A stretch of 63,984 nucleotides of DNA, filler included, from Reclinomonas americana ATCC 50394 (lineage: Eukaryota): the NCBI GenBank assembly GCA_048213135.1. It is 10 parts of 5 records of this genome, joined end to end, with 100 filler letters (N's around TTAATTAATTAA, not from the genome) between each part and the next. Parts side by side here need not be neighbours in the genome. Positions count along the whole stretch, not along the records: positions 1 to 12,944 come from PS015360.1; 9 more parts are not named here. One strand, written 5' to 3'. How positions within the stretch are numbered: position 1 is the stretch's first letter; each line of letters starts with the position of its first letter. The notes beneath the pieces were generated by a model. It did not search any database and was not told where the DNA came from. It saw only the letters and a program-made list of their open reading frames with translations. This document shows, one piece after another, positions 4,922 to 61,526 of this stretch. The position numbers were made by a program, and so were the translations under genes.

Positions 4922-7900
4922 TCACAGCGTGCACAAGGCCAGGTTCCGCGCCACCTGCTCGATCGTGTCGAGGGGCCACTGCACGGTGGTGCAGGCGCGC
5001 ATCGCTCGCTGCCAGTGTTCGGGAATCCACCAACTCCCGTGCAGTGCTGTTCGAGAGACGTCAGCGTGTGGACAGGCACGAGCATGTGAAGGGGAAGAAG
5101 GCTGTCGTACCGCCGCACAGAGCTCCTGTGATGCCACCCATCGAGTCGGCATCGCCGCCGTAGTTGACGGCCTGCACCACAGCCTCTTCGGGATCGCGCC
5201 AGTGTCGCGAGAAGGCCAGGAANNNNNNNNNNNNNNNNNNNNNNNNNNNNNNNNNNNNNNNNNNNNNNNNNNNNNNNNNNNNNNNNNNNNNNNNNNNNNN
5301 NNNNNNNNNNNNNNNNNNNNNNNNNNNNNNNNNNNNNNNNNNNNNNNNNNNNNNNNNNNNNNNNNNNNNNNNNNNNNNNNNNNNNNNNNNNNNNNNNNNN
5401 NNNNNNNNNNNNNNNNNNNNNNNNNNNNNNNNNNNNNNNNNNNNNNNNNNNNNNNNNNNNNNNNNNNNNNNNNNNNNNNNNNNNNNNNNNNNNNNNNNNN
5501 NNNNNNNNNNNNNNNNNNNNNNNNNNNNNNNNNNNNNNNNNNNNNNNNNNNNNNNNNNNNNNNNNNNNNNNNNNNNNNNNNNNNNNNNNNNNNNNNNNNN
5601 NNNNNNNNNNNNNNNNNNNNNNNNNNNNNNNNNNNNNNNNNNNNNNNNNNNNNNNNNNNNNNNNNNNNNNNNNNNNNNNNNNNNNNNNNNNNNNNNNNNN
5701 NNNNNNNNNNNNNNNNNNNNNNNNNNNNNNNNNNNNNNNNNNNNNNNNNNNNNNNNNNNNNNNNNNNNNNNNNNNNNNNNNNNNNNNNNNNNNNNNNNNN
5801 NNNNNNNNNNNNNNNNNNNNNNNNNNNNNNNNNNNNNNNNNNNNNNNNNNNNNNNNNNNNNNNNNNNNNNNNNNNNNNNNNNNNNNNNNNNNNNNNNNNN
5901 NNNNNNNNNNNNNNNNNNNNNNNNNNNNNNNNNNNNNNNNNNNNNNNNNNNNNNNNNNNNNNNNNNNNNNNNNNNNNNNNNNNNNNNNNNNNNNNNNNNN
6001 NNNNNNNNNNNNNNNNNNNNNNNNNNNNNNNNNNNNNNNNNNNNNNNNNNNNNNNNNNNNNNNGGCACCGGCACTGCGAGTTTGACAGTGAGTGATAGCA
6101 CTCTGCATGTATCGCATCGCTTCTACAACATCACTCACACTGCATCTTCGGACTCGAGACCCGGCAGACGGCAATCTTGGTTGACCACGCGCATCATGAC
6201 TTCGATTTCACCGGCGCGCTGGTGCTCATCGATAATGAGCTGGATCTTGTCTCGCAGCGTCTCCTGCGCGCACTCGGCCGCCTGCCGCTGCAGCCAGGCG
6301 AGAACGTCGAATTCGGCCGCTCGCTGCACTTGCAGGAGCTCCCAGATGCCGTGGGCCAGCACGTATGCTGTGCATGGATGGGTGTGTGAGGTATGAAATG
6401 GCCGTCACCCCCTACGCGTGCATACCTGGTTCAATGGCTCGCGGATGCTGGTGTGTGGGCATCAGGCACTTCTGCACGACCTGGCGCCACTGATCGCGCG
6501 GCACACGAGTGAAAGCGAAGGCAGCCGGCGAAACGCGCATGACACCGCCATTGGTGGTGCGCGGTTGCTCCGGGTCGGCGGGTGGCGGTGGCTGGCCGTT
6601 GCGAATGGCCTCCAAGACAGCCCGCGTCCGCCGACTGTATCCGCGACCCGTGCAGTGGGTGACAAAGTGGCGCACAATGACTTCCTCTTCGACGTTGCCG
6701 TCGGCCTCGATGATGGCGAGGGCGAGGGCCACCGACCTGCAAGGTGGGAAAGGGGGAAGGGGTGGAAGGAGGGAGGAAGGGGGAGGGAGTAGAAGGGGGA
6801 AGGGGGAGGAAGGGGAAGGGGGAGGATGAGGGATGGAGGATAAGAGAAAGAAGTGAAGAAAGCGGGAGAGAGGAAGGGAGAGGAGGAGGGAGGGAGGATG
6901 AGGCAGAGAGAGGGAGGAAGGGAGAGGGGGAAGGGACGGAGAGGGGGAAGGGACGGAGAGGGGAGTGATGGAGGGAGGATGAAGGAGAAAGAAGTGAGGA
7001 AGGGGGAGAGCGAGAGAGAGGAAGGGAGGGAGGGAGGAAGGAAGAGGGGGAGGGATGGAGAGAAAGAGAGCGAAAGAAGTGAGGAAGATGAGAGGGAGAG
7101 GAGAGACTGCAAGGGGAGGAAGGGACGTGTGCAGAGGGAGAGGGAGAGAGAGACAGCGACGCAACATCTCCGTGTCATCGGTGTAGTGATTGGAGCGCTC
7201 CATGTCGCGATACTGCGTCAACAAAGCAGTGAGCAACCAACCATGGACAACTCGCTCTCTCTCTCTCTCTCTCTGCCTCTTGCTCTCTACCACTTCCTCC
7301 CTCTCTACCTCGTTCCCTCTCTCTTTCCCTGTCTACCTCTCTGGCTCTCTGCCTATTGCTCTCACCCAGTTGCTCCTCGCTCACCTCGCACCCTGTCTCT
7401 CTTTCTCTCTCTTCCTCTCTTGCTCTCTGTCCTTTCCTCTCTCCACTTCCTCCCCTCTCTGCCTCGTTCCCTCTCTCTTTCCCTGTCTACCTCTCTGGCT
7501 CTCTGCCTATTGCTCTCATCCAGTTGCTCCTCGCTCCCCTAGCTCCCTGTTTCTTTCTCTCTCTGCCTCTCTTGCTCTCTGTCAGTTCTCTCTCCCACTT
7601 CCGGCCTCCTCCTCTGTTCCCTCTCTCTTGCCCTCTCCCTCTTGCTCTCTCTTGGCCTCACGCTTCGTATTTCGTCTCACCAAATCGGGGTAGCGCTTGC
7701 GCAGATCATGGAAGAGCACGTGTTCGACGGCCGCACCGAGAGTGTCGCCACTGCAGACACCCCACAGGACGCCCACGGCACGGTCCATGCGTAGCTCGGT
7801 GAGGTCCACTTCGGCAGCTGCGCGAGTCACCGTCAGCACTTTCCGTGTCATAAACGCACACAGTCAGTCAGCACCACGCACAAGCAGCGTCGTCCGCGGG

Positions 7901-9974
7901 CGCCGCTGCCGACTTGACCGCCGACGCAGACGCATCACCGCCATCGGCAATCTCATCTGCCTCGGCCTCGAGTTCGTCCTCGCCTTCCAGATCCAACTCA
8001 ACGGCGACCTCAAGCGACACGCGAACCGCAGCCTCCGGGGACAGCACGGGCTCGCGCAGCAGCACCGACGGCGACGGCAGGAGTGCGTCGAGTGTCGGCC
8101 AGAATGCCGGCTGCAGCATGGCCGAGATCAGGCGTGGCATCAGCTGGTGTGTGGTCGGCGATGGACCCATGGTGGTCACCTGGGCGATGCTTGGTGAGAA
8201 GAAGGTGCGGAGGAAGAGAGAGTTGATGCGCACACGCAACGACGCCTTCTCCGGCCTCCAGAGCACGGTGCAGCTCAACAATCGGCACCATCACGATGGT
8301 GGGAATCTCCGTCATGCAACGCGACCTGAGCACGCATGAACAGAACGAGGGAGACGTTTAGCAATGGGAATGGATGAGCGTGCGCAGGGAAAGAGTGGCA
8401 ACGCACAATCCCTGCTGCTTGGCGGCCTCGTAGCGCTGGCGATGCGCCGCCGGGTCCATCGGCTCCGGCATGTGGTACATGTACATGCGGTACGACGCGT
8501 TGGCGCTGCTCTGCACATCGATATACGGCAGCTTCTCAATCTCCTCCACTCTGCACAGTGGGGAAGTGCGTTTGATTGTAAGCGAGAGACAAGCGAAAGT
8601 GCCTTGACAGTGGACGCAACGGGAGGCGCACTCCGCCGCACGTTTCTTCAAAGAACTCATTGCTGGCAGTCAGTGCAGCTCTGCGGTGGTGAATGAGTAA
8701 GCAGACATGAAGATATAAGAATAGTGCAAGGAACCTCACCCTGCGTACGACCGCGTCTCGGGAATCCAACTGCGCGTGCCGCCAAAGTCGCACAGCTGCC
8801 GATGCAAAACTAAATGAGCGTTGCGCCGAACAAGCAATGGGAGAACGTGATCACCTTGTTGCGACGGCGGCGTCCGCCTTCGACCGCCAGCGTCGCCACG
8901 CGCTGCCCATCGACCATGTGCAGCACAAACACACCCGCACCGGAGATTTGTCGCGGCGGCGGACTGACCATCACCTCCACAGAGACCGGACGGCGTCCCG
9001 ACGAAGACGACGACGACGACGACGACGACAACTGAGAGGCGTCGGCCTCACTCATGCAGGCACACAACGCCATCAGCAACTCGTGAGTGTGCACGTGCTG
9101 CAGCGCATTCTGCAGACGCTCGCTTAGCTGGAGCTCGCGAAAGTCGCCCAGCGACACGGATCGTGGCGGTGGCTTCTGCAGCAGCGCATGCAGCGGAACG
9201 TGGCAGAGGGATTCCATGCGGGTGTATCGCTGGCTGCGAGAAAAAAAAGGTGGGCAACAAGGACAGGAGTGCGTTACGGAAAGAGAGAGACGCAACTTTC
9301 CCTCGTAACACGCTCGGTTCACTGCACACCAGAGAAGGAGTGAGTGGACACTGCGGAACAAGAGACAGCAGGCACACACACACCTCGCGACTTGAATCGC
9401 CGACGAGACAGCGGCTGCTCCACGTTGAGATAAAAGTACATGCGATAGTACTCGCCACGACGCTCACTGCCGGGCACGAGCAGGTCCACGTGCGGCAACT
9501 CCGCCACATCCTTGTCTCTGTGAGAAGTGTGAGAGAACAGCAGAGACGCAGAGAGAGCACAGAGCGCACGAAACGAGAGTGTCAGCAGACGCGCAGTCTC
9601 CTCGTACAATTGTCGAGCGGCGTTCTCCCAGGGACTGCAGTGGGGTGAGTGAGAGGGGAGAGAGACAGTCTTTCTAGATCTGTCACTCTCTGACAGTAAA
9701 CGCAACGTGAGTCGTGCACTGGAGGGACTTGCAGCGTCATGTCGACGACGGACGATGCCGCCAAAGTCGTTGAGCTTGTTGCGTGAGCGGCCGCGACTCT
9801 CAATGCCCTTTTGTGTGTGTGTCAGTGTGTGAGAGAGAGAGAGTGTGTGTGTGTTCGTGATGCATGTGAGGAGCTCACCAGCACGGCGTAGGGCGTCTCT
9901 CCGTCGTAGTCAAACTCGACGATGAAGATGCCGGAGCCGACAATGAAGGACTCGGAGGAAGACGAGGTGCCCAT
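4922..9974 (-). CDS. Fusion protein: tandem Nudix-like domains plus ADP-ribosylglycohydrolase (ARH/DraG family); N gap inside the ARH part
   Basis: Domain 1: GSGIFIV...RNKLNDFGG...NAARQLYEETA. Domain 2: GAGVFVL...RNKLCDFGG...TASNEFFEETCG. A 64-nt GT-AG intron (7818-7881) joins ...DDAAS-AEVDL in frame. ARH motifs: GDTLGAAVE, YTDDTEM, GRGYS, NGGVMRVSP, PTHQHP, GGDADSMGGITGALCG, IPEHW. Confidence 0.8.
7290..7600. repeat. About 150-bp imperfect tandem duplication of CT-rich sequence inside an ARH intron
   Basis: ccacttcctccc...cctcgttccctctctctttccctgtctacctctctggctctctgcctattgctctca..ccagttgctcctcgctc occurs at about 7290 and about 7443. Confidence 0.8.
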
Positions 9975-10306
9975 GAGTGTGTGTGTGTGATTTGTTGTCC
10001 CCACCGGTTTCGTCCGTCGATATTGATGGATCGATTTTTCCGCGAGAGGGAAGGCGGGAGTGCGTTGTGAGTTGATTGGGGAGTGTTACCTCGAGCTATT
10101 CGCACACTATTACGCTGATACAAGTGGAGTCTTTGATGGGCAAGTGGCTGACTGGCCACGCATGTGGGAAGAAACCGTGTATTGTCACCCGAGCTCTGAG
10201 TACTGGCGCGTTGCGCGGTGTACTGCATTCAAACACAAATTCAGGAGCAACAGCTATTCCTTATCGGCATTACCTTCGTCGTCTGAGTCGTCTGCGGCTC
10301 CTACAG

Positions 10307-11472
10307 TCAGGCCGGAGTATCTGCTTCGTCAGGCTGCCCTACAGCGTACTCGGGGATGACTGTCTGCACGCCGGCCACCGTGCACTTGTTGGCTAAGCGG
10401 CCACACGCCGCGGGATACACGCCTTCCACCGCCACTGCCAAGCACACACGACAGAAATTCGCTCTGCAGCGTTTGCAGACAGTGTGCTGTGCAGATGTTG
10501 CTCAGCAACAGCACCGATCGTGCAAGCACCGGCACCCACACACCTTGCAGCCATTCTTTGTCTCAAAGATAAAACCACAGTGTGGGCAGGCTCGGCGAAC
10601 TGGAGCGCGGACGCCTGGCAGATGTGAGATGTTCTGAAACCAGAAGCATGAGAAACAGAAGTGAATAATTGCCGGCGACCAAGCGCTGACTGTTACCTCG
10701 TCGTAGGGGCTGGTGGTGAGCAACTCCACCAAGGGATCCATCGTGCACTTGCTGCCGCGCTGGCAGTCGGTGTACGTTTCACCGCACCAAAAGCAGAAGT
10801 CGTAATTGGCTGCAAAGTGGCACGATGAAGATCAGCCCCAAGACGCGATACGAAGCAAGCCAACAAAAGGCAAGCACACAACTTCCGCGTGCTGTCGAGC
10901 AGTTACCACAGCGGACATAACGATCTGCGAGCGGAAACAGTCAGTCTGTGAGGGCGTGTGCGTGGTCATCGTGATCAATTGTGCCCGCACCGGCGCGGTT
11001 CTCGCGACAGCATTCCAGCTTGCAGCCAGGGCATGCCTTCACTCGTCGCATCTGGTGAACGTAGAATCCGCTGATGTGGTCGTCATACTTGTGCCGCTGC
11101 GCGCGTGGAAGTGCTGCAAACACAATTGCATCCGGCAGTTCTTTGTCACAGCCTTTGGCGACACAGCGCACTCGCATGACGGTGACCTGTTACCATGAGG
11201 TTGAATACGTGATGCTGGAATTCGAAAGCATGTACACAACACGGAAGCGCACTTACAAACCTTCTCCACGTCGACCACTCGCACAACTTCAGAGCAGATT
11301 ACCTCCTCACACAGAAAATGACCACACGGGAGCTGCGGTGAACACAAAGTCAACACCTCAACGCTCGACACCAGTGATAGCACTTGTCACTCGCAACTGA
11401 GAAGCACTCCTGATTCTCTGTACACGAGCAGCACATTTTCTTGGAGAGCGATGTGTTCACGCGCGCCGCCAT
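10307..11472 (-). CDS. Compact RBR (RING1-IBR-RING2) E3 ligase, multi-exon
   Basis: Spliced: MAARVNTSLSKKMCCSCTENQECFS|LPCGHFLCEE...RVRCVAKGC (RING1); ACPGC...VRCGNC...FCFWCG (IBR); ACPHCGFIFETKNGCK|HTVCKRCRANFCRVCL (RING2, GCxHxxC with the catalytic Cys); stop TGA at 10307-10309. Confidence 0.8.
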
Positions 11473-11855
11473 GATGTCCGCTCCGTAGATTGCGTAAGAA
11501 AAGCAAGTGTCGTGTCTGTCGTGTACGACAACCCCCTGTCCAAAGACGGGAACAATGTGCACGCCAGTGGTGGCCGAACACCGCACGTGACACTCGTGCC
11601 CTTGTCGGTACCTGCACAATCGAACATTCGTCGACCGTGCCTGCTGCCAACACCAACACTGGAATTCAAAGACGCAAAGTCTCCTTCACGACGATTGGCC
11701 AGCGCGCCAAACTGACAACACCCCGAATGTCAGATGCACACTGCAAAGTCGTGTCACGGGATTATGCATGTTGTCTGCCGGATTCTGCACTGTCAGCCAG
11801 CATCCTTCGTATCACGCTCTGTCGAGCACGCACACACCACTCACATCAAAAAAAA

Positions 11856-12325
11856 ATGCCTGAAATCGGACTCCGCATTCGCTTCGGTGCCCAGGACCCA
11901 GTCGTCGGTTCGTATCGTGACAGCCGTCTCAGCAGAGTGTCGCTCGCAGAGAACTCAACAACGCTACAGTGATGGTTCCCGGTCCTGCCACCAAACTGCG
12001 TGAACTGAAGACTGGTGAGTTACGCATACAGGCGAAAAAACATGACAGACAGCGAGCTCACATAGTCCACACCGCCGCAGCCATTCTCCAGTCTGTGCCC
12101 GCCGCAAAGTATGTAAAACCGGAAGACATGCGCCTGTGCTTCAGAGGCCATGATCTGAGCGACGACGAGAAGACTCTCGCACAGCTCGGCATTGAGGAAG
12201 ACGCCTCCATCTTCTTGTTGCAGAGGTTTGACCAAGGGGAAGAGCTGATCGTGAGAGTGCACTGCCTGGCTCATTTTTCCGACTCGTCTTTCAGGGTTCG
12301 GGGAGGCTTCGGGGCTGCTGACTGA
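11856..12325 (+). CDS. Divergent ubiquitin-like protein (~90 aa) with C-terminal diglycine and a 5-aa tail; 4 exons
   Basis: Three GT-AG introns give MPEIGLRIRFGAQDPVVVMVPGPATKLRELKTAILQSVPAAKYVKPEDMRLCFRGHDLSDDEKTLAQLGIEEDASIFLLQRVRGGFGAAD*. This matches the ubiquitin pattern [36 protein letters not shown]. Confidence 0.8.
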
Positions 12326-12988
12326 GGAGGGGGAGGGCAGCCATGCCAAGATAAAATGTACACGACGACATCTACTTCCGATTCTGCTGGCATGATGGGA
12401 AAGAGTACCAGTGTTGAAGAGGGGGCTATAAAAGACAGCGACTCGACATTGGAAGAGAACGCAACAACTGACGGCAGGTGGCGACAGGAAACAGTGCGAC
12501 GGCGGTGCGATGCAAGCAGCTGGTGGCGTCGCCACGCACACAAACTGCAGCAGAAGCAGAGAGCGACAGTGTGTCGAGGTGGATGGTGGCATCACATTAA
12601 CGCAGAGAGTGAGAGCGAGAGCGAGAGCGAGAGGGAGAGAGAGAGGGAGGGAGGGAGAGAGAGAGAGAGATTCGCGCTTCCAGTGACTTGTCCCACCCAC
12701 TCCACCGCTGCCGGCTTGTCCGCGGAAAAACCATTGCTGCCCGCTCAATTGCGCTGAAGTGCATCATGTGTTGAAAGCCACGGCTGCAGCGGCTCGCGCG
12801 CAATCTCCTAGCCACCTGAAAGCGCGCAGTGCAGTTATATCCAAAAGTGATGTCGACGTCGAAGTCAATATTAATTGCAACGTCGTATAGCGTTTTTGCG
12901 TTGAGTATACCTGGGCCAGCCTCCCGGCCAACACGATCGCAGAANNNNNNNNNNNNNNNNNNNNNNNNNNNNNNNNNNNNNNNNNNNN

Positions 12989-13000
12989 TTAATTAATTAA
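12989..13000. other. Artificial scaffold-joining linker TTAATTAATTAA (also at 26065, 31696, 37013, 42471, 52600, 56016, 59072, 61471)
   Basis: Identical 12-mer with stops in all six frames, each time padded by N runs. Confidence 0.95.
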
Positions 13001-13164
13001 NNNNNNNNNNNNNNNNNNNNNNNNNNNNNNNNNNNNNNNNNNNNTTGTTAGACTTTCGTCGATCGAATTCGCCAAGGCGCAGCGCTGCAGCGTCGTTGCA
13101 TTTCACCCAGCACAACACGCTCCCGCCTTGCGTATTCATTCAAGTAAAATCTCGGTTCCCAACC

Positions 13165-19666: not shown

Positions 19667-21290
19667 TTATTCGTCGTCGTCGCCAGCCAGGTCCTCCACC
19701 TTTGCCTCGTCGTTGCCGTCGCCTGCACGCAGACACAAAGAAGGGTGAGCGCACGCAGATTCACACCCTGCCGTAAAACGCGAGCGCGAACGACTCACCA
19801 CCCTCTTGCATGTCGCTTGTCCACAGAGTGAGGTTGTCGCGCAACAGCTGCATGATCAATGTGCTGTCCTTGTACTGCTCCTCGGTCAGCGAGTCGAGCT
19901 CGGCAATGGCCTCGTCAAAGGCCGACTTGGCCAGATCGCAGGCGCGATCGGGTGAGTTCATGATCTCAAAGTAGAACACGGAGAAGTTGAGGGCGAGGCC
20001 AAGGCGGATGGGGTGCGTCGGCGGCAGCTGCAGCAGAGCCACGTCTGATGCGGCCTTGTACGCACTGAGAGCATCCTTCGAGGCAGTCTCGCGCACTTCG
20101 CCCGAGGCGAACTCGGCCATGTACCGGTGGTAGTCGCCCTTCATCTTGTTGTAGAAGACGACCGACTCGGCAGCCTGAGCGTTCTTGATCAGGTGCTGGT
20201 CGAGCAGCGCAAGCACGTCGCGGCAGATCTTGGCCAGCTCCTCCTCAATCTTGTTGCGGTACTGGCGGATGCGCTTGACGTTCTCCGCGTTGCCCTTGTG
20301 CTCCTCCTTGGCCTCAATCGACGACACAATGCGCCACGACGCACGGCGAGCTGGCACGCACTCAAAACGTCAGTCATCAATCAACACAAGACCCACCACC
20401 AACAGGAGCAGCAAACGCACCGCCAATGACGTTCTTGTATGCCACAGACAACAGGTTGCGCTCCTCCACCGTCAACTCGGTGTCGTTCCTGGCCACGTTC
20501 TGCGACAACAAAACAAAGTGTGAGGCGCGAAAAAAATCGAAACAGCAAAACCAATCATTCATCAAACACACCTTCATGAACTCGACCATCTCTGCGAAAC
20601 GAACAAGCACGCACGGGGTGTTGTCAGTGAGAGAGTGCATCCTCACAAAACAAACACAATTGGGGGGAATGATGCTCACCATCATAGCGCTCCGCCTGCT
20701 CGGCGATCTTGGCCATGAACACGTTTTCTTCCTGCGCGCATATGCCGCATGTGGTGAGCGGGCAGAGAGAGAGAGAGAGAGGAAGAGAGGAGAGAGAGCG
20801 AACTTGAACATGGCCATCTAACCCTCCACTGCAGCACGAGTGATGAAACGCAAGAGAGAACGAGCGAGCGACGAGACAGAGAGACTAGACGCGCACGTGC
20901 GTGTGCTGTGCGTGTGGAGAGAGAGAAAAGAGGGCACATCAATATCTCGCTGCAATTGAAGCTGTACGCGCGCGCCCACGTATTACAACGGTCAGTTGTC
21001 GCACACGCAAAAGAAAGAGAAAGTGACGCCCCACAACGAAACAAGCACATGCGGAGGTTGACAGACACACACTGCAGTGGCACAGTGAAAGGGCGTGCGC
21101 GTGTGAGTGTGTGCGTGCAAAAAAACGAGGTGGTGGCGTCACGGAAAATGCGCGCACACCAACACACTCACTCACACGCACACACACGCGCGCTCATTCC
21201 AAAGAGGAGCACACACGCACGCGCACACGCAGAGAAAAGAGAGAGAGAGAGTGTGTGTGAGTGAGAGAGGCCGCGACGAACCTTCGACAT
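19667..21290 (-). CDS. 14-3-3 protein, paralogue A (6 exons)
   Basis: [23 protein letters not shown]...[22 protein letters not shown]...[20 protein letters not shown]...[20 protein letters not shown]; all introns GT-AG. Confidence 0.97.
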
Positions 21291-21431: not shown

Positions 21432-22904
21432 ATGTCAAAGGTGCGTTTGCATCGTGTTGTGTTTGCGTGTGAGGGTGTTTATTTTGTTGTCGCGCGCGCC
21501 ATTTCGTTGGTCGTCACACAACGCACCTCTCTCTCTCTGCTGCTGCTGCAACAGTGCATTTGTGTGTCTTGTTCTCTCTCTCTCTCTTTCTCTTCATTTG
21601 TGCGTGCGTGTGCTTGTGTGTTTTTTTGGTGGCGTTGGCGCGCACTTTTTTCTCGTCTTTTCTTTTTGCGCGCGACTTTTGTGTGTGCGCTGCTCACGTG
21701 CGCGTCTGTGTGTGTTTTCACAGGAAGAGAGCGTGTTCATGGCAAAGGTGGCCGAGCAGGCCGAGCGATACGATGGTGAGTGCTCAAACACGCACACACA
21801 CACATTCATTGCTTTTTTTGCTGTCTCTTTCTCTCCCTCTCTCCTTTCTCCCTCCAACGTCTGGTTGTGCCTACGTACGTCTGTGGCTGTGCGCGTCACA
21901 TACTTTTATGTGTTTTTTGTGTGACATGACGCTTTACACTACGCACACACTCACTTACTTTCCTCCGTTTTTCTTATAATACACAGAGATGGTCGACTAC
22001 ATGAAGAAGGTGTGTGCCACTTGCGCGACTCGGCGTGGCGTGTGTTGATATTTATTTTTTGTTGTTGAATGCAGGTGGCCAAGAGCGACCAGGAGTTGTC
22101 GGTCGAGGAGCGCAACCTGCTGTCTGTGGCCTACAAGAACGTCATTGGTGGTGCGTCTTCCCTCTCTTCCCCGCAACGCACCTCCCTCTGCATTGTGCGC
22201 AATCCACTCACCTTACACAGCTCGCCGCGCTTCGTGGCGCATTGTCACCTCGATCGAGGCCAAGGAGGAGCACAAGGGCAACGTTGCGTCGCTCTTCTGT
22301 GTGTCTTTTCGTTGCCCTCCCCTCCGCCGCTCACGTTTGTCTCGTGCGCGCGTGTGTGCAGGCCGCGAACGTGAAGCGCATCTCCGAGTACCGCGGCAAG
22401 ATCGAGACCGAGCTGAAGGGCATTTGCCGCGACGTGCTCGACGTGCTCGACCAGCACTTGATCAAGAACGCGCAGACACCCGAGTCGGTCGTCTTCTACA
22501 ACAAGATGAAGGGCGATTACTACCGCTACATGGCCGAGTTCACCAGCGGCGCCGAGCGCACGCAGGCGGCTGAGCAGTCATTGGTGGCCTACAAGGCGGC
22601 CTCGGATGTGGCCACGGTGCAGCTGACGCCGACACACCCCATCCGCCTCGGCCTCGCCCTCAACTTCTCCGTGTTCTACTTTGAGATCATGAACTCGCCC
22701 GACCGCGCATGCGAGCTGGCCAAGTCGGCCTTCGACGAGGCCATTGCCGAGCTGGACTCACTCTCCGAGGAGCAGTACAAGGACAGCACATTGATCATGC
22801 AGCTGCTGCGCGACAACCTCACCCTGTGGACGAGCGACATGCAAGAGGCGGCCGAGGCCAATGACCAGGCCAAGCTGGAGGATGTGGACCCGGACGATGA
22901 GTAA
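21432..22904 (+). CDS. 14-3-3 protein, paralogue B (6 exons)
   Basis: [31 protein letters not shown]...[22 protein letters not shown]...[10 protein letters not shown]; stop TAA at 22904. Confidence 0.97.
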
Positions 22905-23966: not shown

Positions 23967-25103
<1,137 letters not shown>

Positions 25104-26011: not shown

Positions 26012-26120
26012 ACTACTACTNNNNNNNNNNNNNNNNNNNNNNNNNNNNNNNNNNNNNNNNNNNNTTAATTAATTAANNNNNNNNNNNNNNNNNNNNNNNN
26101 NNNNNNNNNNNNNNNNNNNN

Positions 26121-31492: not shown

Positions 31493-31784
31493 AAAAATGT
31501 GTGTTCAGTGATGTGTTGTGTTGTTGTTGTTGCAGAGAAAAAAGGCGAGGATCCCAGCAAGTGGTGATTGATAATTATTTGTCATCGAGGGTTTGCTGTC
31601 TCTTATTTTTTCTTTCTTTCTCCCCTAATGTGAATGCGTATCCCGTGCCGANNNNNNNNNNNNNNNNNNNNNNNNNNNNNNNNNNNNNNNNNNNNTTAAT
31701 TAATTAANNNNNNNNNNNNNNNNNNNNNNNNNNNNNNNNNNNNNNNNNNNNTCTCTCCCTCGCTCTCTCTCTTCTTTCGCCTAC

Positions 31785-36968: not shown

Positions 36969-37068
36969 NNNNNNNNNNNNNNNNNNNNNNNNNNNNNNNN
37001 NNNNNNNNNNNNTTAATTAATTAANNNNNNNNNNNNNNNNNNNNNNNNNNNNNNNNNNNNNNNNNNNN

Positions 37069-38045: not shown

Positions 38046-38118
38046 TGCCTTCGGCCGGGATCGAACCAGCGACCTTACGATCTTCAGTCGTACGCTCTCC
38101 CAATTGAGCTACGAAGGC
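38046..38118 (-). tRNA. tRNA-Phe(GAA), intronless
   Basis: GCCTTCG TAGCTCAATTGGGAGAGC G TACGA CTGAAGA TCGTA AGGTC GCTG GTTCGATC CCGGC CGAAGGC A; 73 nt, full cloverleaf, T-runs downstream. Confidence 0.95.
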
Positions 38119-42426: not shown

Positions 42427-42526
42427 NNNNNNNNNNNNNNNNNNNNNNNNNNNNNNNNNNNNNNNNNNNNTTAATTAATTAANNNNNNNNNNNNNNNNNN
42501 NNNNNNNNNNNNNNNNNNNNNNNNNN

Positions 42527-46143: not shown

Positions 46144-48245
46144 CTACTGCTCGCCTTCCTCGGGTATTGGTGCGGCGCCGGTCTTGTAGTGCTGGAACGA
46201 CTCGACTTTTGTCATGCCACGCCCAGAGCCGACCACGCCCACCTGCACGAGCAACAGCACATGGTGAGACAACACTTCTTGGCGCGGCATTGACAGACGC
46301 TCGCACCTTGCCGTCAACCGTGTCAGGTGACTTGAATATGCTCTCGCGTCCAGTGACCTTTTTGCCAGGCTTCTTGCCTGTGGCATGCGATGAGAACAGA
46401 CTCCACACACGCAATCATTCGGACCACACACAGACACGTACCAAGGAACTTCTTCCACGACTCCTGCTTCTTCTTGACCTCCTTGTCCTTCTCCTCGTCT
46501 CGCTTGACACGCTTCTCCTTCTTCTTCTGCTTCTTGAGCTTCTCCAATCGCTCCTCCTGTCATCGTCGACATCACGTGAGCACAGAGAAGGGGCAGACAG
46601 ATGCATGGTGGAACGCAACATCCACATTGCCGGGTCGCTTCTTGCCCGAGAGTCCTGGCATGGTGATGCTGGGTGCCTCGGCACCACGCGCCCCCACCGA
46701 CAGAATGCCCAACTCATCGATCGGCCGAATCGAGTGCTCGTCCACCTGCCAGCGTTCAGTGAGTGAACATGCACACACACAACGATCACGCACAGTGCAC
46801 CGACAGACCTCTTGCAATCCGCCGCCCTTGGGGAACGTGACCCAGTATGTGTGACCGTCCTTTGATGGTGCATCCACCGTCTGCCGACACACAAAAGTGA
46901 GGTCNNNNNNNNNNNNNNNNNNNNNNNNNNNNNNNNNNNNNNNNNNNNNNNNNNNNNNNNNNNNNNNNNNNNNNNNNNNNNNNNNNNNNNNNNNNNNNNN
47001 NNNNNNNNNNNNNNNNNNNNNNNNNNNNNNNNNNNNNNNNNNNNNNNNNNNNNNNNNNNNNNNNNNNNNNNNNNNNNNNNNNNNNNNNNNNNNNNNNNNN
47101 NNNNNNNNNNNNNNNNNNNNNNNNNNNNNNNNNNNNNNNNNNNNNNNNNNNNNNNNNNNNNNNNNNNNNNNNNNNNNNNNNNNNNNNNNNNNNNNNNNNN
47201 NNNNNNNNNNNNNNNNNNNNNNNNNNNNNNNNNNNNNNNNNNNNNNNNNNNNNNNNNNNNNNNNNNNNNNNNNNNNNNNNNNNNNNNNNNNNNNNNNNNN
47301 NNNNNNNNNNNNNNNNNNNNNNNNNNNNNNNNNNNNNNNNNNNNNNNNNNNNNNNNNNNNNNNNNNNNNNNNNNNNNNNNNNNNNNNNNNNNNNNNNNNN
47401 NNNNNNNNNNNNNNNNNNNNNNNNNNNNNNNNNNNNNNNNNNNNNNNNNNNNNNNNNNNNNNNNNNNNNNNNNNNNNNNNNNNNNNNNNNNNNNNNNNNN
47501 NNNNNNNNNNNNNNNNNNNNNNNNNNNNNNNNNNNNNNNNNNNNNNNNNNNNNNNNNNNNNNNNNNNNNNNNNNNNNNNNNNNNNNNNNNNNNNNNNNNN
47601 NNNNNNNNNNNNNNNNNNNNNNNNNNNNNNNNNNNNNNNNNNNNNNNNNNNNNNNNNNNNNNNNNNNNNNNNNNNNNNNNNNNGGTGGCGGAATACCAAG
47701 ACACAGATCACCACCACGCACCGCCGTGGTGAATGTGCCGTAGCGCTCATCAACCGCGTAGCACGCCGCACCAGCCTGTAGCCGGGTGACATCGGGTGGC
47801 GCCCAGGCATGCAAGCGGTTCACCTGCAGCCTCACTGGCTTCTGATCAAAGCCGTGATACCTGGGCGTGGACAGCAGCGTGTCAGCCACAGTGCAGGAGA
47901 GAGACAGACAGCGTGTTGTGCACGCAACTCCACTGTGTACTCCAGTTTGCTGTGCTTCTCAGTGACGCGCGCCGTGTACCATCGCTTGTCTCTCTCGTAG
48001 TACGCCAGCACCCAGTCGCTGATACCATACTCGGCCGCATTGGCCTCCTGCACTCGCCCCCAACACAACGCTCAGATCACTGTAACACACACAGAGAGAG
48101 GAAGAGAGGGAGAGAGAGAGTGACTGACCAGCTCGGCCAGACGCACTGCCTCCGCCTCTGCTTGCCGCGCTGCTGCCTGCGCCGCCAACACCTCCTCTTG
48201 CTGCTTGACTGCAATCACTTGCCGTGTAATGGTAATGTACTTGAC
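46144..48245 (-). CDS. SMNDC1: SPF30/SMNDC1-like Tudor splicing factor, central and C-terminal part
   Basis: Tudor-like WVLAYYERDKRWYTARV; C-terminal KQESWKKF...RESIFKSPDTVDGK|VGVVGSGRGMT. Confidence 0.85.
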
Positions 48246-52283: not shown

Positions 52284-52713
52284 CGAGGGATACAAACGTT
52301 TAAACACACTGCACACGTCATCGTAACTGTCCCTTCACAATCACACGTCGACATGGACGAGTACTCACTCGAGCAGCTGGAGCAGACACTGCGTGACTAT
52401 GAAGGGCAGCTGGCCACAGTGGAGGCACTGCTGCAACAGGTGCGTGTGCGCACGCCCATCTTCTGTCTCTGTATGCACAGCAGTCCACACTCAAGTTGAA
52501 TGTGCGCGCGCAGAGTCCAGGCAACCCGCAGGCGCTGAGCCTCCACGAGCAGATTNNNNNNNNNNNNNNNNNNNNNNNNNNNNNNNNNNNNNNNNNNNNT
52601 TAATTAATTAANNNNNNNNNNNNNNNNNNNNNNNNNNNNNNNNNNNNNNNNNNNNTCTCTCTCAAGCACAAGCACAAGCAGCAGGACACCACGAGGACTG
52701 CAAGTGATTGACG

Positions 52714-55971: not shown

Positions 55972-56071
55972 NNNNNNNNNNNNNNNNNNNNNNNNNNNNN
56001 NNNNNNNNNNNNNNNTTAATTAATTAANNNNNNNNNNNNNNNNNNNNNNNNNNNNNNNNNNNNNNNNNNNN

Positions 56072-59027: not shown

Positions 59028-59127
59028 NNNNNNNNNNNNNNNNNNNNNNNNNNNNNNNNNNNNNNNNNNNNTTAATTAATTAANNNNNNNNNNNNNNNNN
59101 NNNNNNNNNNNNNNNNNNNNNNNNNNN

Positions 59128-61426
59128 CGCGATTTTGAAATGCAGGCCTTTGAGCGCGCCCTGATTGACATGATGGATGGCCGGTTGGACAAGCCCGACA
59201 TCAAGTTGCTGGAGCGCGTCATCCCGAAGGAGCCGTGGATGCTCGAGAAGCCGGTGGAGGAGTGGTCCGACGACGAGAAGCGCCAGCATAAGGAGTGGGA
59301 GGAGAAGGAGAAGAAGCTGCAGGAGGAGAAGGACCGGTACCGCAAGCTGTTGGAGTCGGAGGCGCGCAAGCTGCGACAGGATATTGCCGATTTGATTGCG
59401 GCCTTTGACAAGAAGCTGCTGGCGTTGCTGAACGACAAGATTACCACCGACGAGGAGATTTACCGCATGGAGTTGCTCGTCATCAAGCTCGTGCAGGCCA
59501 TTGTGGCCGAGAAGGAGCTGATTGAGCGCGAACAGCAGCTCAAGGTGCGGTTGCCNNNNNNNNNNNNNNNNNNNNNNNNNNNNNNNNNNNNNNNNNNNNN
59601 NNNNNNNNNNNNNNNNNNNNNNNNNNNNNNNNNNNNNNNNNNNNNNNNNNNNNNNNNNNNNNNNNNNNNNNNNNNNNNNNNNNNNNNNNNNNNNNNNNNN
59701 NNNNNNNNNNNNNNNNNNNNNNNNNNNNNNNNNNNNNNNNNNNNNNNNNNNNNNNNNNNNNNNNNNNNNNNNNNNNNNNNNNNNNNNNNNNNNNNNNNNN
59801 NNNNNNNNNNNNNNNNNNNNNNNNNNNNNNNNNNNNNNNNNNNNNNNNNNNNNNNNNNNNNNNNNNNNNNNNNNNNNNNNNNNNNNNNNNNNNNNNNNNN
59901 NNNNNNNNNNNNNNNNNNNNNNNNNNNNNNNNNNNNNNNNNNNNNNNNNNNNNNNNNNNNNNNNNNNNNNNNNNNNNNNNNNNNNNNNNNNNNNNNNNNN
60001 NNNNNNNNNNNNNNNNNNNNNNNNNNNNNNNNNNNNNNNNNNNNNNNNNNNNNNNNNNNNNNNNNNNNNNNATTCATGGCGGCAGACTAGCTTCGTTGTG
60101 CGACTGTGCTGACACGCCCTTGTCTCCTCCTCCCCCCACAGGTGACACTCGATGAGCTGAAGCAGCAGGCGTCGCAGACGTCAACAGAGGTGGCGCAGTT
60201 CCGCCGTGAGGTGGTGGCGGCGCAGAGCGAGTTTGAGGAGATGAAGGCGGAGGAGCGCGAAATGGCGGCCGAGAAGAACTTCAAGCTCAAGTTTGCCGAC
60301 GCACCCGATCACGTCGATCATTTGTGGAAGTTGTTCCGAAGGAGACCAAAGGTGCGAGGCGGGGAGAGAAGGGCGAGTATGACATGCGTTCCAAATGTCT
60401 CACCATCTTGTGCCTTGTTTGTCGAGCAGCCGCTGGTCGCCCAACAGCGACCACCATCGTCGTCGGGGGTGGCGGCCACCGCCGCGGATCCGTTTGGCGG
60501 CGTGGAGAGTTCACCGTCGATGATTGCCACCGAGGCACCGGCGGAGCCACCGGATGTGTTGGATGTCATTCGCGATCGACCAGAAGGCATCAGCGACGTG
60601 GTGTGGGAGCGCTTCTGGGAGTGGCGAAAGTACAAGATGGCTAAGGAGCGCGACATCAAGTTTGCGGCGGAGCGTCTTGCCGAGATGGAGGCTCACTTGC
60701 AGAAGCAGGAGGCCGACGAGGCCACTTACAACCGCGAGGTATGGAACTTATTCGTGGACGCAACAGAGTGCGTGACTCTCACCACTCACCTTGTCTGTGT
60801 GAATGCAGATGATGTCGGCCTCGGCGCTGGTGAAGGAGTTGCATCAGGAGCGCATCGACTCGGCCTACAACACCGATTGCATCCTCACGCTCAGGCAAGG
60901 CCAGGTGGAGGTGGAGCAGGCGGCTGTCGTCACCGACTACGGCAACTCGGTGCTCATCAACAACAAGATTGTGCGCGGCCTCAACGACGAAATCCTGCGT
61001 GCTGCCAATGAGAACATTGAGTGCCTGAAGCAAATTCGCGACTTCCGCAAGCAAGTGCGCCAGCTGGAATGGTGCGTGACAGCCGCCGCCCCCCATGAAT
61101 TGACAAGCAACTGTACTCATCGTGAGTGTGATGTGCAGGAATTTGGACAAGTTGGACCTGGATGCGGAGCACTTTGCGGTGCTGAAGAACGAGTTCTACT
61201 TGCTGCGCATGACCAAGAACATGCAAGAGTTCATCAAGGGTGGCGAGAATGCGTCGCAGGACGCCGTCAAGACGGAGCTGCTCGGCAAGAAGGAGTCGAT
61301 GCGCAAGATGTTCGAGGCCAAGATCAAGGAGAAGGACAACCAGATCCGCAAGCTGCGGCGTCAGATTCGACAGCGTGTCGAGGAGAACCACATGCTGGAT
61401 CAGCGTATCCGCGAGCACACGGTGAT
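59128..61426 (+). CDS. CFAP43: CFAP43 (WDR96) C-terminal coiled-coil region, partial
   Basis: ERALIDMMDGRLDK; LRQGQVEVEQAAVVTDYGNSVLINNKIVRGLNDEI; QIRDFRKQVRQLEW. Confidence 0.85.
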
Positions 61427-61526
61427 NNNNNNNNNNNNNNNNNNNNNNNNNNNNNNNNNNNNNNNNNNNNTTAATTAATTAANNNNNNNNNNNNNNNNNN
61501 NNNNNNNNNNNNNNNNNNNNNNNNNN

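Follow-up and report, generated by a model that had tools for sequence, protein, structure and literature searches.

Ubiquitin is, to our knowledge, nearly invariant across eukaryotes; near-identity over the full length is expected of ubiquitin itself, and identity at more than half of the positions is expected of NEDD8. The precursors of ubiquitin, NEDD8 and ISG15 carry a short extension after the diglycine (GG), and ISG15 and FAT10 are lineage-restricted, tandem di-ubiquitin-like proteins whose tail is of the RxRGG type and whose precursors are extended as well. The RING1-IBR-RING2 (RBR) class of E3 ligases, with its catalytic Cys/His, is defined in PMC9834252, and that paper describes activation by ubiquitin or ubiquitin-like (UBL) proteins, bound at the RING1-IBR interface, as a common regulatory feature of the class. 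Here, we describe positions 10,307 to 12,325 of a 63,984-nt stretch of DNA (the window) of Reclinomonas americana ATCC 50394, assembly GCA_048213135.1, where a gene for a ubiquitin-like protein, hereafter Ubl, lies head-to-head with a gene for a minimal RBR ligase.

We favour, with moderate confidence, the reading that these are two separate and real protein-coding genes of the ubiquitin system, divergent over a 383-nt spacer, the Ubl being lineage-specific and homologous to ubiquitin in its C-terminal half. The coding sequence (CDS) of the Ubl, as rebuilt from the window, runs on the + strand from the ATG at 11856 to the stop at 12325, in four exons interrupted by three introns of 62, 66 and 69 nt, all GT..AG. 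Its product of 90 aa ends in LLQRVRGG, then FGAAD, then the stop, and is exactly the protein of ~90 aa that an earlier inspection of the DNA (the sequence-only reading) had obtained by removing three GT-AG introns. The parts of the gene are:

11856..11907, + strand: Ubl exon 1, residues 1-17, with the ATG in an A-rich context and an alternating hydrophobic pattern
11908..11969, + strand: Ubl intron 1, 62 nt, GTTCGTAT...CTACAG
11970..12014, + strand: Ubl exon 2, residues 18-32
12015..12080, + strand: Ubl intron 2, 66 nt, GTGAGTTA...CCGCAG, in frame without a stop
12081..12225, + strand: Ubl exon 3, residues 33-80, the ubiquitin-homologous core
12226..12294, + strand: Ubl intron 3, 69 nt, GTTTGACC...TCTTTCAG, in frame without a stop
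12295..12325, + strand: Ubl exon 4, which completes R81 and continues with VRGG, the FGAAD tail and a TGA stop

Coding potential was measured as codon log-odds, for which 2277 nt of exons with Pfam matches in the window served as the training set. The whole Ubl CDS scored +16.4 bits in the modelled frame compared with -19.0 and -115.5 in the other two, with in-frame values of +5.0 for exon 1 and +25.9 for exon 3. The frame that opens at ATG 11856 is kept only if intron 1 is removed. An upstream in-frame ATG at 11727 would lengthen the protein by 43 codons; these scored -31.4, so the extension is unlikely to be coding, and translation more probably starts at ATG 11856. Read through in frame, intron 2 scored -6.3.

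Since introns 2 and 3 are both stop-free multiples of three, an unspliced open reading frame (ORF) of 134 aa (11921-12322, + strand) reads through them and already ends in ...FRVRGGFGAAD. The proposal that the ubiquitin-like LxRxRGG terminus forms only after removal of the last intron was hence right for the LxRxRGG join, in which the last strand is brought next to the tail in the register of ubiquitin, but not for the RVRGGFGAAD end, which the unspliced frame shares. Short, in-frame and stop-free introns of this kind can hide such small genes from ORF-based views.

The relationship to ubiquitin was analyzed with two profiles. Against a narrow profile, made of 155 unique ubiquitin units that came from the matches of the exhaustive phmmer search described below, Ubl residues 41-85 aligned to positions 33-76 and ended at the GG with 24.8 bits, a score that none of 5000 shuffles reached (best 7.3). 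A diverse profile of 211 units of less than 60% identity gave 26.7 bits over residues 41-82, again beyond all 5000 shuffles (best 7.7). Keeping intron 3 lowered the ubiquitin-profile score to 21.1 bits, compared with 24.8 bits upon its removal, when the match extended to the GG. Further, Pfam PF00240 was found in exon 3 alone (E 1.5e-5, 25.1 bits) and in the unspliced ORF (E 3.4e-5, 23.9 bits).

Over the alignable half, the Ubl is identical to the ubiquitin consensus at 15 of 44 positions with one 1-residue gap, and the identities include the positions aligned to R42, L43, F45, G47, R72, R74, G75 and G76. In line with the diglycine terminus that had been proposed, G84-G85 occupy profile positions 75-76 and five further residues precede the stop, a short extension like that of the precursors of ubiquitin, NEDD8 and ISG15. 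The protein differs from ubiquitin in its N-terminal 38 residues, which could not be aligned, and in the replacement of I44 by C, K48 by H, K63 by E, H68 by F and L71 by Q.

The nearest solved structures were ubiquitins, ubiquitin variants and ubiquitin fusions (best 60 of 238 PDB matches). Polyubiquitins reached very low E-values in this search because scores add up over repeats, while single 76-aa ubiquitin chains reached only E 0.12-0.4. In a protein atlas, exon 3 gave leads below 0.9 only, to ubiquitin/SUMO-type clusters. By sequence, the Ubl appears to be a member of the broad ubiquitin family, yet neither ubiquitin nor any named modifier, as had been judged by eye; it lacks the high full-length identity of ubiquitin proper and NEDD8. 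It shares with ISG15 and FAT10, by functional analogy, a taxonomically restricted ubiquitin-family sequence, an RxRGG-type tail and a precursor extension. It is distinct from both in being a single domain instead of a tandem of two, in showing no homology to them beyond that of the general ubiquitin family, and in having no dedicated activating (E1) or conjugating (E2) enzyme found nearby.

The phmmer alignments of the PDB search to polyubiquitin ran past the end of the unit into the next repeat, and the translation of intron 3 was laid against the start of that repeat. This likeness is probably due to chance. A remnant second ubiquitin unit, retained as the read-through of intron 3, was considered and rejected, since the stretch is too short to make up a unit and splicing raises the score. 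An isoform that retains intron 3, with a 23-residue insert before RVRGG, is possible.

The RBR CDS extends on the - strand from ATG 11472 to the stop at 10307-10309 and comprises seven exons that encode 255 aa. Its six introns, all GT..AG, measure 65, 74, 66, 73, 63 and 57 nt. Donor 11397 is required for the first of them, as donor 11356 breaks the frame. The exons, in the order of translation, are:

11398..11472, - strand: RBR exon 1, residues 1-25, with the first RING1 Cys pair C14/C15 and C17; codon log-odds +17.4
11261..11332, - strand: RBR exon 2, residues 26-49, with RING1 C28-G-H30 and the following Cys
10991..11186, - strand: RBR exon 3, with C57/C62 as the last Cys pair of RING1, then the linker between RING1 and IBR and, with C101/C104, the beginning of the IBR
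10883..10924, - strand: RBR exon 4, with IBR C120/C123; codon log-odds -9.8, uninformative at 14 codons
10697..10809, - strand: RBR exon 5, with IBR C134, C137, C144 and C150; codon log-odds +38.5
10544..10633, - strand: RBR exon 6, with RING2 C182/C185 and the putative catalytic C195; codon log-odds +13.1
10307..10486, - strand: RBR exon 7, with H197, C200, C203, C208, C211, C224 and C231, an acidic tail and a TGA stop

The whole RBR CDS scored +87.9 in the modelled frame compared with -98.0 and -182.5 in the other frames. The introns of the two genes together span 57-74 nt and belong to the same size class as the two introns that were mapped in the window by protein homology, one in a 14-3-3 gene (70 nt, GTGCGTTT..CCAG) and one in the gene of an LC8 dynein light chain (67 nt, GTTGCGCC..GCAG).

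The Cys/His series of the ligase is collinear with RING1-IBR-RING2. RING1 contributes C14/15, C17, C28, H30, C33, C38, C57 and C62, in this order; eight Cys in an IBR-like order extend from C101 to C150, and RING2 comprises C182, C185, C195-K-H197, C200, C203, C208 and C211. The motif G194-C195-K-H197-T-V-C200 arises only across the junction of exons 6 and 7, that is, with intron 6 removed. Merely 13 residues precede the first RING1 Cys and 24 follow the last Cys, which, in a protein of 255 aa, leaves no room for a UBA-like or an Ariadne domain. The description of the ligase as little more than RING1-IBR-RING2 with an intact GCxHxxC was therefore borne out.

Searches with single exons pointed in the same direction. 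In the PDB, ARIH2 was the sole match of RBR exon 3 (three distinct sequences, E 0.0049), over ARIH2 residues 180-232, a segment that runs from the end of RING1 through the linker into the start of the IBR. Exon 7 aligned from its first residue to the RING2 of ARIH1 (E 1.3). The exon 7 region matched Pfam IBR_1 at E 0.0056 and 0.027, and zf-RING_UBOX on exon 2 (positions 14-25, E 0.079) was not significant. In the protein atlas, exon 3 had IBR/RBR clusters as neighbours at 0.87, which is a lead only.

The ligase appears closest to the Ariadne type (ARIH1/HHARI and ARIH2/TRIAD1), whose members were the only solved-structure matches of its exons and with which it has the RING1-IBR-RING2 order and the Cys-x-His in common. 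It differs from that type in having neither the UBA-like/acidic N-terminal region nor the autoinhibitory Ariadne domain. After the catalytic motif, its RING2 shows C-x2-C where C-x4-C stands in the alignment to ARIH1.

Relatives of both proteins were sought in protein, metagenome and viral libraries. An exhaustive phmmer search of 1,835,955,588 representatives with the unspliced Ubl ORF retrieved 214 proteins at E ≤0.001. The best 150 of these 214 were ubiquitin-repeat proteins of 237-1619 aa, all with at least three matched stretches, and match the ORF because scores add up over repeats; the 12 among them that were checked with Pfam were, without exception, ubiquitin-repeat proteins without an IBR. 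A word-index protein search returned no relative of the Ubl ORF (near lengths) or of the RBR ORF 10502-10831 (longer lengths); the ADP-ribosylglycohydrolase ORF on this contig (Pfam E 2.1e-14), searched as a control, likewise had no match, and the blanks for the two genes therefore carry little weight. Metagenome scans with the Ubl ORF and RBR exon 3 found no relative, nor did scans of viral contigs for either gene, and the window contains no paralogue of the Ubl or the RBR. In the literature, searched mostly through titles and the openings of abstracts, we found no pairing of an RBR gene with a stand-alone Ubl gene described.

The end of the Ubl gene and the phmmer matches bear on one further explanation, in which the Ubl exons form the 5' portion of a larger gene, one that extends beyond the end of the contig and encodes a protein with an N-terminal Ubl domain. 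Just 619 nt separate the Ubl stop from the linker N44-TTAATTAATTAA-N44, at which the contig is joined to the next, and many domains of the ubiquitin fold serve as N-terminal modules in larger proteins. However, the in-frame stop lies five codons past the GG, where ubiquitin-type precursors end, no Pfam-recognisable ORF is present in 12326-12944, and no longer protein carrying the Ubl sequence was found among the phmmer matches listed. We regard this explanation as highly improbable.

The reading of two real genes has to be weighed against a series of observations that count against it. On the Ubl side, residues 1-38 behaved like random sequence in a global alignment to the ubiquitin profile (z 0.2, with 758 of 2000 shuffles as good), and neither the narrow nor the diverse profile reaches into them. 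Introns 1 and 2 consequently rest on splice grammar, on frame and on the by-eye pattern given below, and no homology support across the intron 1 junction was found in the ubiquitin profile alignments. When the introns were varied one at a time, several alternative splice pairs came within 2 bits of the model in the ubiquitin profile, two of them slightly above it. Exon 2 scored -4.5 in codon log-odds (15 codons, too short to inform), exon 4 was also negative (a short exon, uninformative alone), the read-through frame of intron 3 was mildly coding-like (+6.5), and the support per codon was modest for the Ubl (0.18) compared with the RBR (0.34). The PF00240 scores of 23.9 and 25.1 bits fall just short of the gathering cut-off of 25.4. 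The exhaustive phmmer search listed no short single-domain relative, no close relative of either gene came from the protein, metagenome or viral searches, and the 619 nt beyond the stop make for a short 3' context.

On the side of the ligase, the matches at the level of exons are all weak (E 0.005 to 1.3), as introns split every zinc domain. The fifth and sixth RING1 ligands are spaced C-x4-C, different from the usual C-x2-C, and a Cys stands in the IBR at the place usually taken by His.

Several of these points suit a rival in which the Ubl model is wrong or the gene non-functional, being either a decaying ubiquitin-derived fragment or a set of mis-assigned 5' exons without a stable beta-grasp. 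Homology is confined to exon 3, the N-terminal 38 residues show no detectable ubiquitin similarity, exons 2 and 4 have negative codon log-odds, alternative splice pairs reach equal profile scores and the libraries searched hold no protein of such kind. Further, tblastn with a canonical ubiquitin unit did not match the locus at E ≤10, and AlphaFold2 returned an unconfident and uninformative model (mean predicted local distance difference test score, pLDDT, of 42) for the unspliced 134-aa ORF, which differs from the proposed product. Against this rival, the frame is intact from ATG to stop through four exons, with canonical splice sites and introns of the local size class, the tail falls into exact register with the last strand of ubiquitin only after splicing, and the codon log-odds of the whole CDS are positive in the modelled frame only. 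The N-terminus also shows, by eye, a strand-turn-strand-helix pattern of about the right length. A complete beta-grasp fold takes about 70-76 residues. Of the stand-alone beta-grasp protein put forward by the sequence-only reading, the ubiquitin match of residues 41-85 was thus recovered, and similarity in the first 38 residues was not; a folded N-terminal half is suggested by that pattern. An intact four-exon frame and RxRGG tail at an identity of 15/44 would point to selection and not to decay, and we consider the rival unlikely.

The two genes face each other with their 5' ends, ATG 11856 of the Ubl and ATG 11472 of the RBR lying 384 bp apart with 383 nt between them, in agreement with the divergent arrangement and the spacing of ~380 bp reported earlier. 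Both are contained in one uninterrupted block (6064-12944). The region between them is:

11473..11855, neither strand: divergent intergenic region, 383 nt, putative shared promoter and 5' untranslated regions

Several upstream ATGs are present in it. A sigma-70 promoter/terminator scan of the region showed nothing of note; such a bacterial-type scan is irrelevant for a eukaryote.

If the favoured reading of two genes is right, the most likely mechanism follows by analogy with such proteins elsewhere. A protease of the deubiquitinase type would remove FGAAD from the Ubl precursor, an E1 would adenylate the exposed Gly, and the Ubl would then pass through an E2 to its targets. The lysines aligned to K48 and K63 are replaced by His and Glu, which suggests a mono-tag or a chain cap, and the Ubl would probably act as one of these rather than form K48/K63 chains. 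The RBR, by the mechanism of its family, would accept a ubiquitin-type protein on Cys195 from an E2 and hand it on. R42 and R72 of ubiquitin are contacts of the general ubiquitin E1; Arg is kept at both aligned positions of the Ubl, which suggests that it could use the general E1 and is a mild argument against a dedicated one. Should the Ubl be expressed and conjugated, a new lineage-restricted, ubiquitin-derived modifier would be gained.

Whether the neighbours also work together is a separate matter. The sequence-only reading had proposed a dedicated, co-regulated Ubl/RBR module, possibly for stress or defence, in which the RBR forms its thioester specifically with this Ubl. The head-to-head genes with 383 nt between their ATGs, the conjugation-type tail of the Ubl together with the intact catalytic Cys-x-His of the RBR, and a ligase without any accessory domain to link it to a different pathway are compatible with such a module, and the lack of close relatives of either gene in the searched libraries fits a lineage-specific pair. 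No result was obtained in support of a dedicated conjugation system, of co-regulation or of a role in stress or defence, however. Pfam detected no E1 (ThiF), E2 (UBC) or deubiquitinase domain in the 259 stop-to-stop ORFs of at least 60 aa within positions 1-26000 of the window, and the Arg residues at the positions aligned to R42 and R72 suggest use of the general E1. Head-to-head pairs are ordinary here, as illustrated by the divergent 14-3-3 genes described below. By our estimate, tens of RBR and ubiquitin-fold genes exist per eukaryotic genome, so that chance neighbours are not rare when many windows are scanned.

This is, moreover, a single instance of adjacency, and one adjacency taken from a very large scan is weak evidence for a functional pair. 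The dedicated, co-regulated module, with specific charging of this Ubl on this RBR, is rated unlikely. A broader version, a bidirectional cassette in which an orphan tag is either charged onto its own domain-free RBR or activates it allosterically, is judged just as doubtful; if true, the cassette would be a lineage-specific conjugation pathway evolved from ubiquitin, independent of ISG15/FAT10. The adjacency is a lead, and coincidental or loosely co-expressed neighbours are more likely than a dedicated pair.

A ubiquitin-fold module also accompanies the RBR core in Parkin and HOIL-1, where, according to PMC9834252, binding of ubiquitin or a UBL regulates the ligase. The present Ubl, in contrast, has a gene of its own on the other strand and a free GG-plus-tail terminus, and the 5' ends of both coding regions face each other. 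The Ubl might in this manner be a non-covalent, trans-acting allosteric activator or regulator of the RBR without being conjugated by it. Such a role would have its parallel in the activation of parkin, HOIP, HOIL-1, RNF216 and HHARI by bound ubiquitin or UBLs. Activation of this kind is described as common among RBRs in PMC9834252, and the present ligase, whose gene immediately adjoins that of the Ubl, has no Ubl, UBA-like or Ariadne domain of its own. The single instance of adjacency limits this idea as well, and a tail after the GG is generally typical of conjugated modifiers and not of regulatory Ubl domains; we think it quite improbable. Were the minimal RBR the specific ligase or the regulated partner of the Ubl, the two genes would offer a small and tractable model of the way in which RBRs select or sense Ubls. 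As matters stand, the two genes amount to a gain in annotation and a lead, not to a new system.

The window consists of contigs joined by nine identical linkers, N44-TTAATTAATTAA-N44, with stops in all six frames, so gene neighbourhood across a linker is meaningless. The linkers lie at:

12945-13044, 26021-26120, 31652-31751, 36969-37068 and 42427-42526: N44-TTAATTAATTAA-N44
52556-52655, 55972-56071, 59028-59127 and 61427-61526: N44-TTAATTAATTAA-N44, continued

Larger N blocks, e.g. 891-1318, 5223-6063 and 46905-47683, are gaps or masked stretches.

Other features of the window are:

2230-2418, - strand: RING finger exon of C3HC4 type, zf-RING_UBOX E 5.8e-7
6415-7332, - strand: ADP-ribosylglycohydrolase domain exon, Pfam E 2.1e-14, on the same contig, ~3 kb past the RBR 3' end
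9825-10085, - strand: ORF with an MG... N-terminus, on the RBR strand and beginning ~330 nt past the RBR stop, no Pfam match
19764-20817, - strand: 14-3-3 gene, Pfam E 4.5e-82
22069-22901, + strand: 14-3-3 gene, Pfam E 4.4e-73
23970-24260, - strand: LC8 dynein light chain exons
38046-38118, - strand: tRNA gene, Rfam 68 bits, the sole Rfam match in the window
60091-61011, + strand: CFAP43 coiled-coil exon

The RING finger exon, which lies in the first contig block, belongs to another gene of E3 type and is set apart from the Ubl/RBR pair by an N gap. The ORF at 9825-10085 is probably the next gene after the RBR, and a link of ADP-ribose with ubiquitin-type signalling through the neighbour at 6415-7332 is conceivable. 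The two 14-3-3 genes are a divergent pair of paralogues, head-to-head ~1.25 kb apart. Further genes within 1-26000 are Mod(r) and HCNGP-like by Pfam, and a WD40 gene also lies further along the window. LC8 and CFAP43 indicate an organism with cilia or flagella; the source of this DNA is a flagellated, intron-rich eukaryote.

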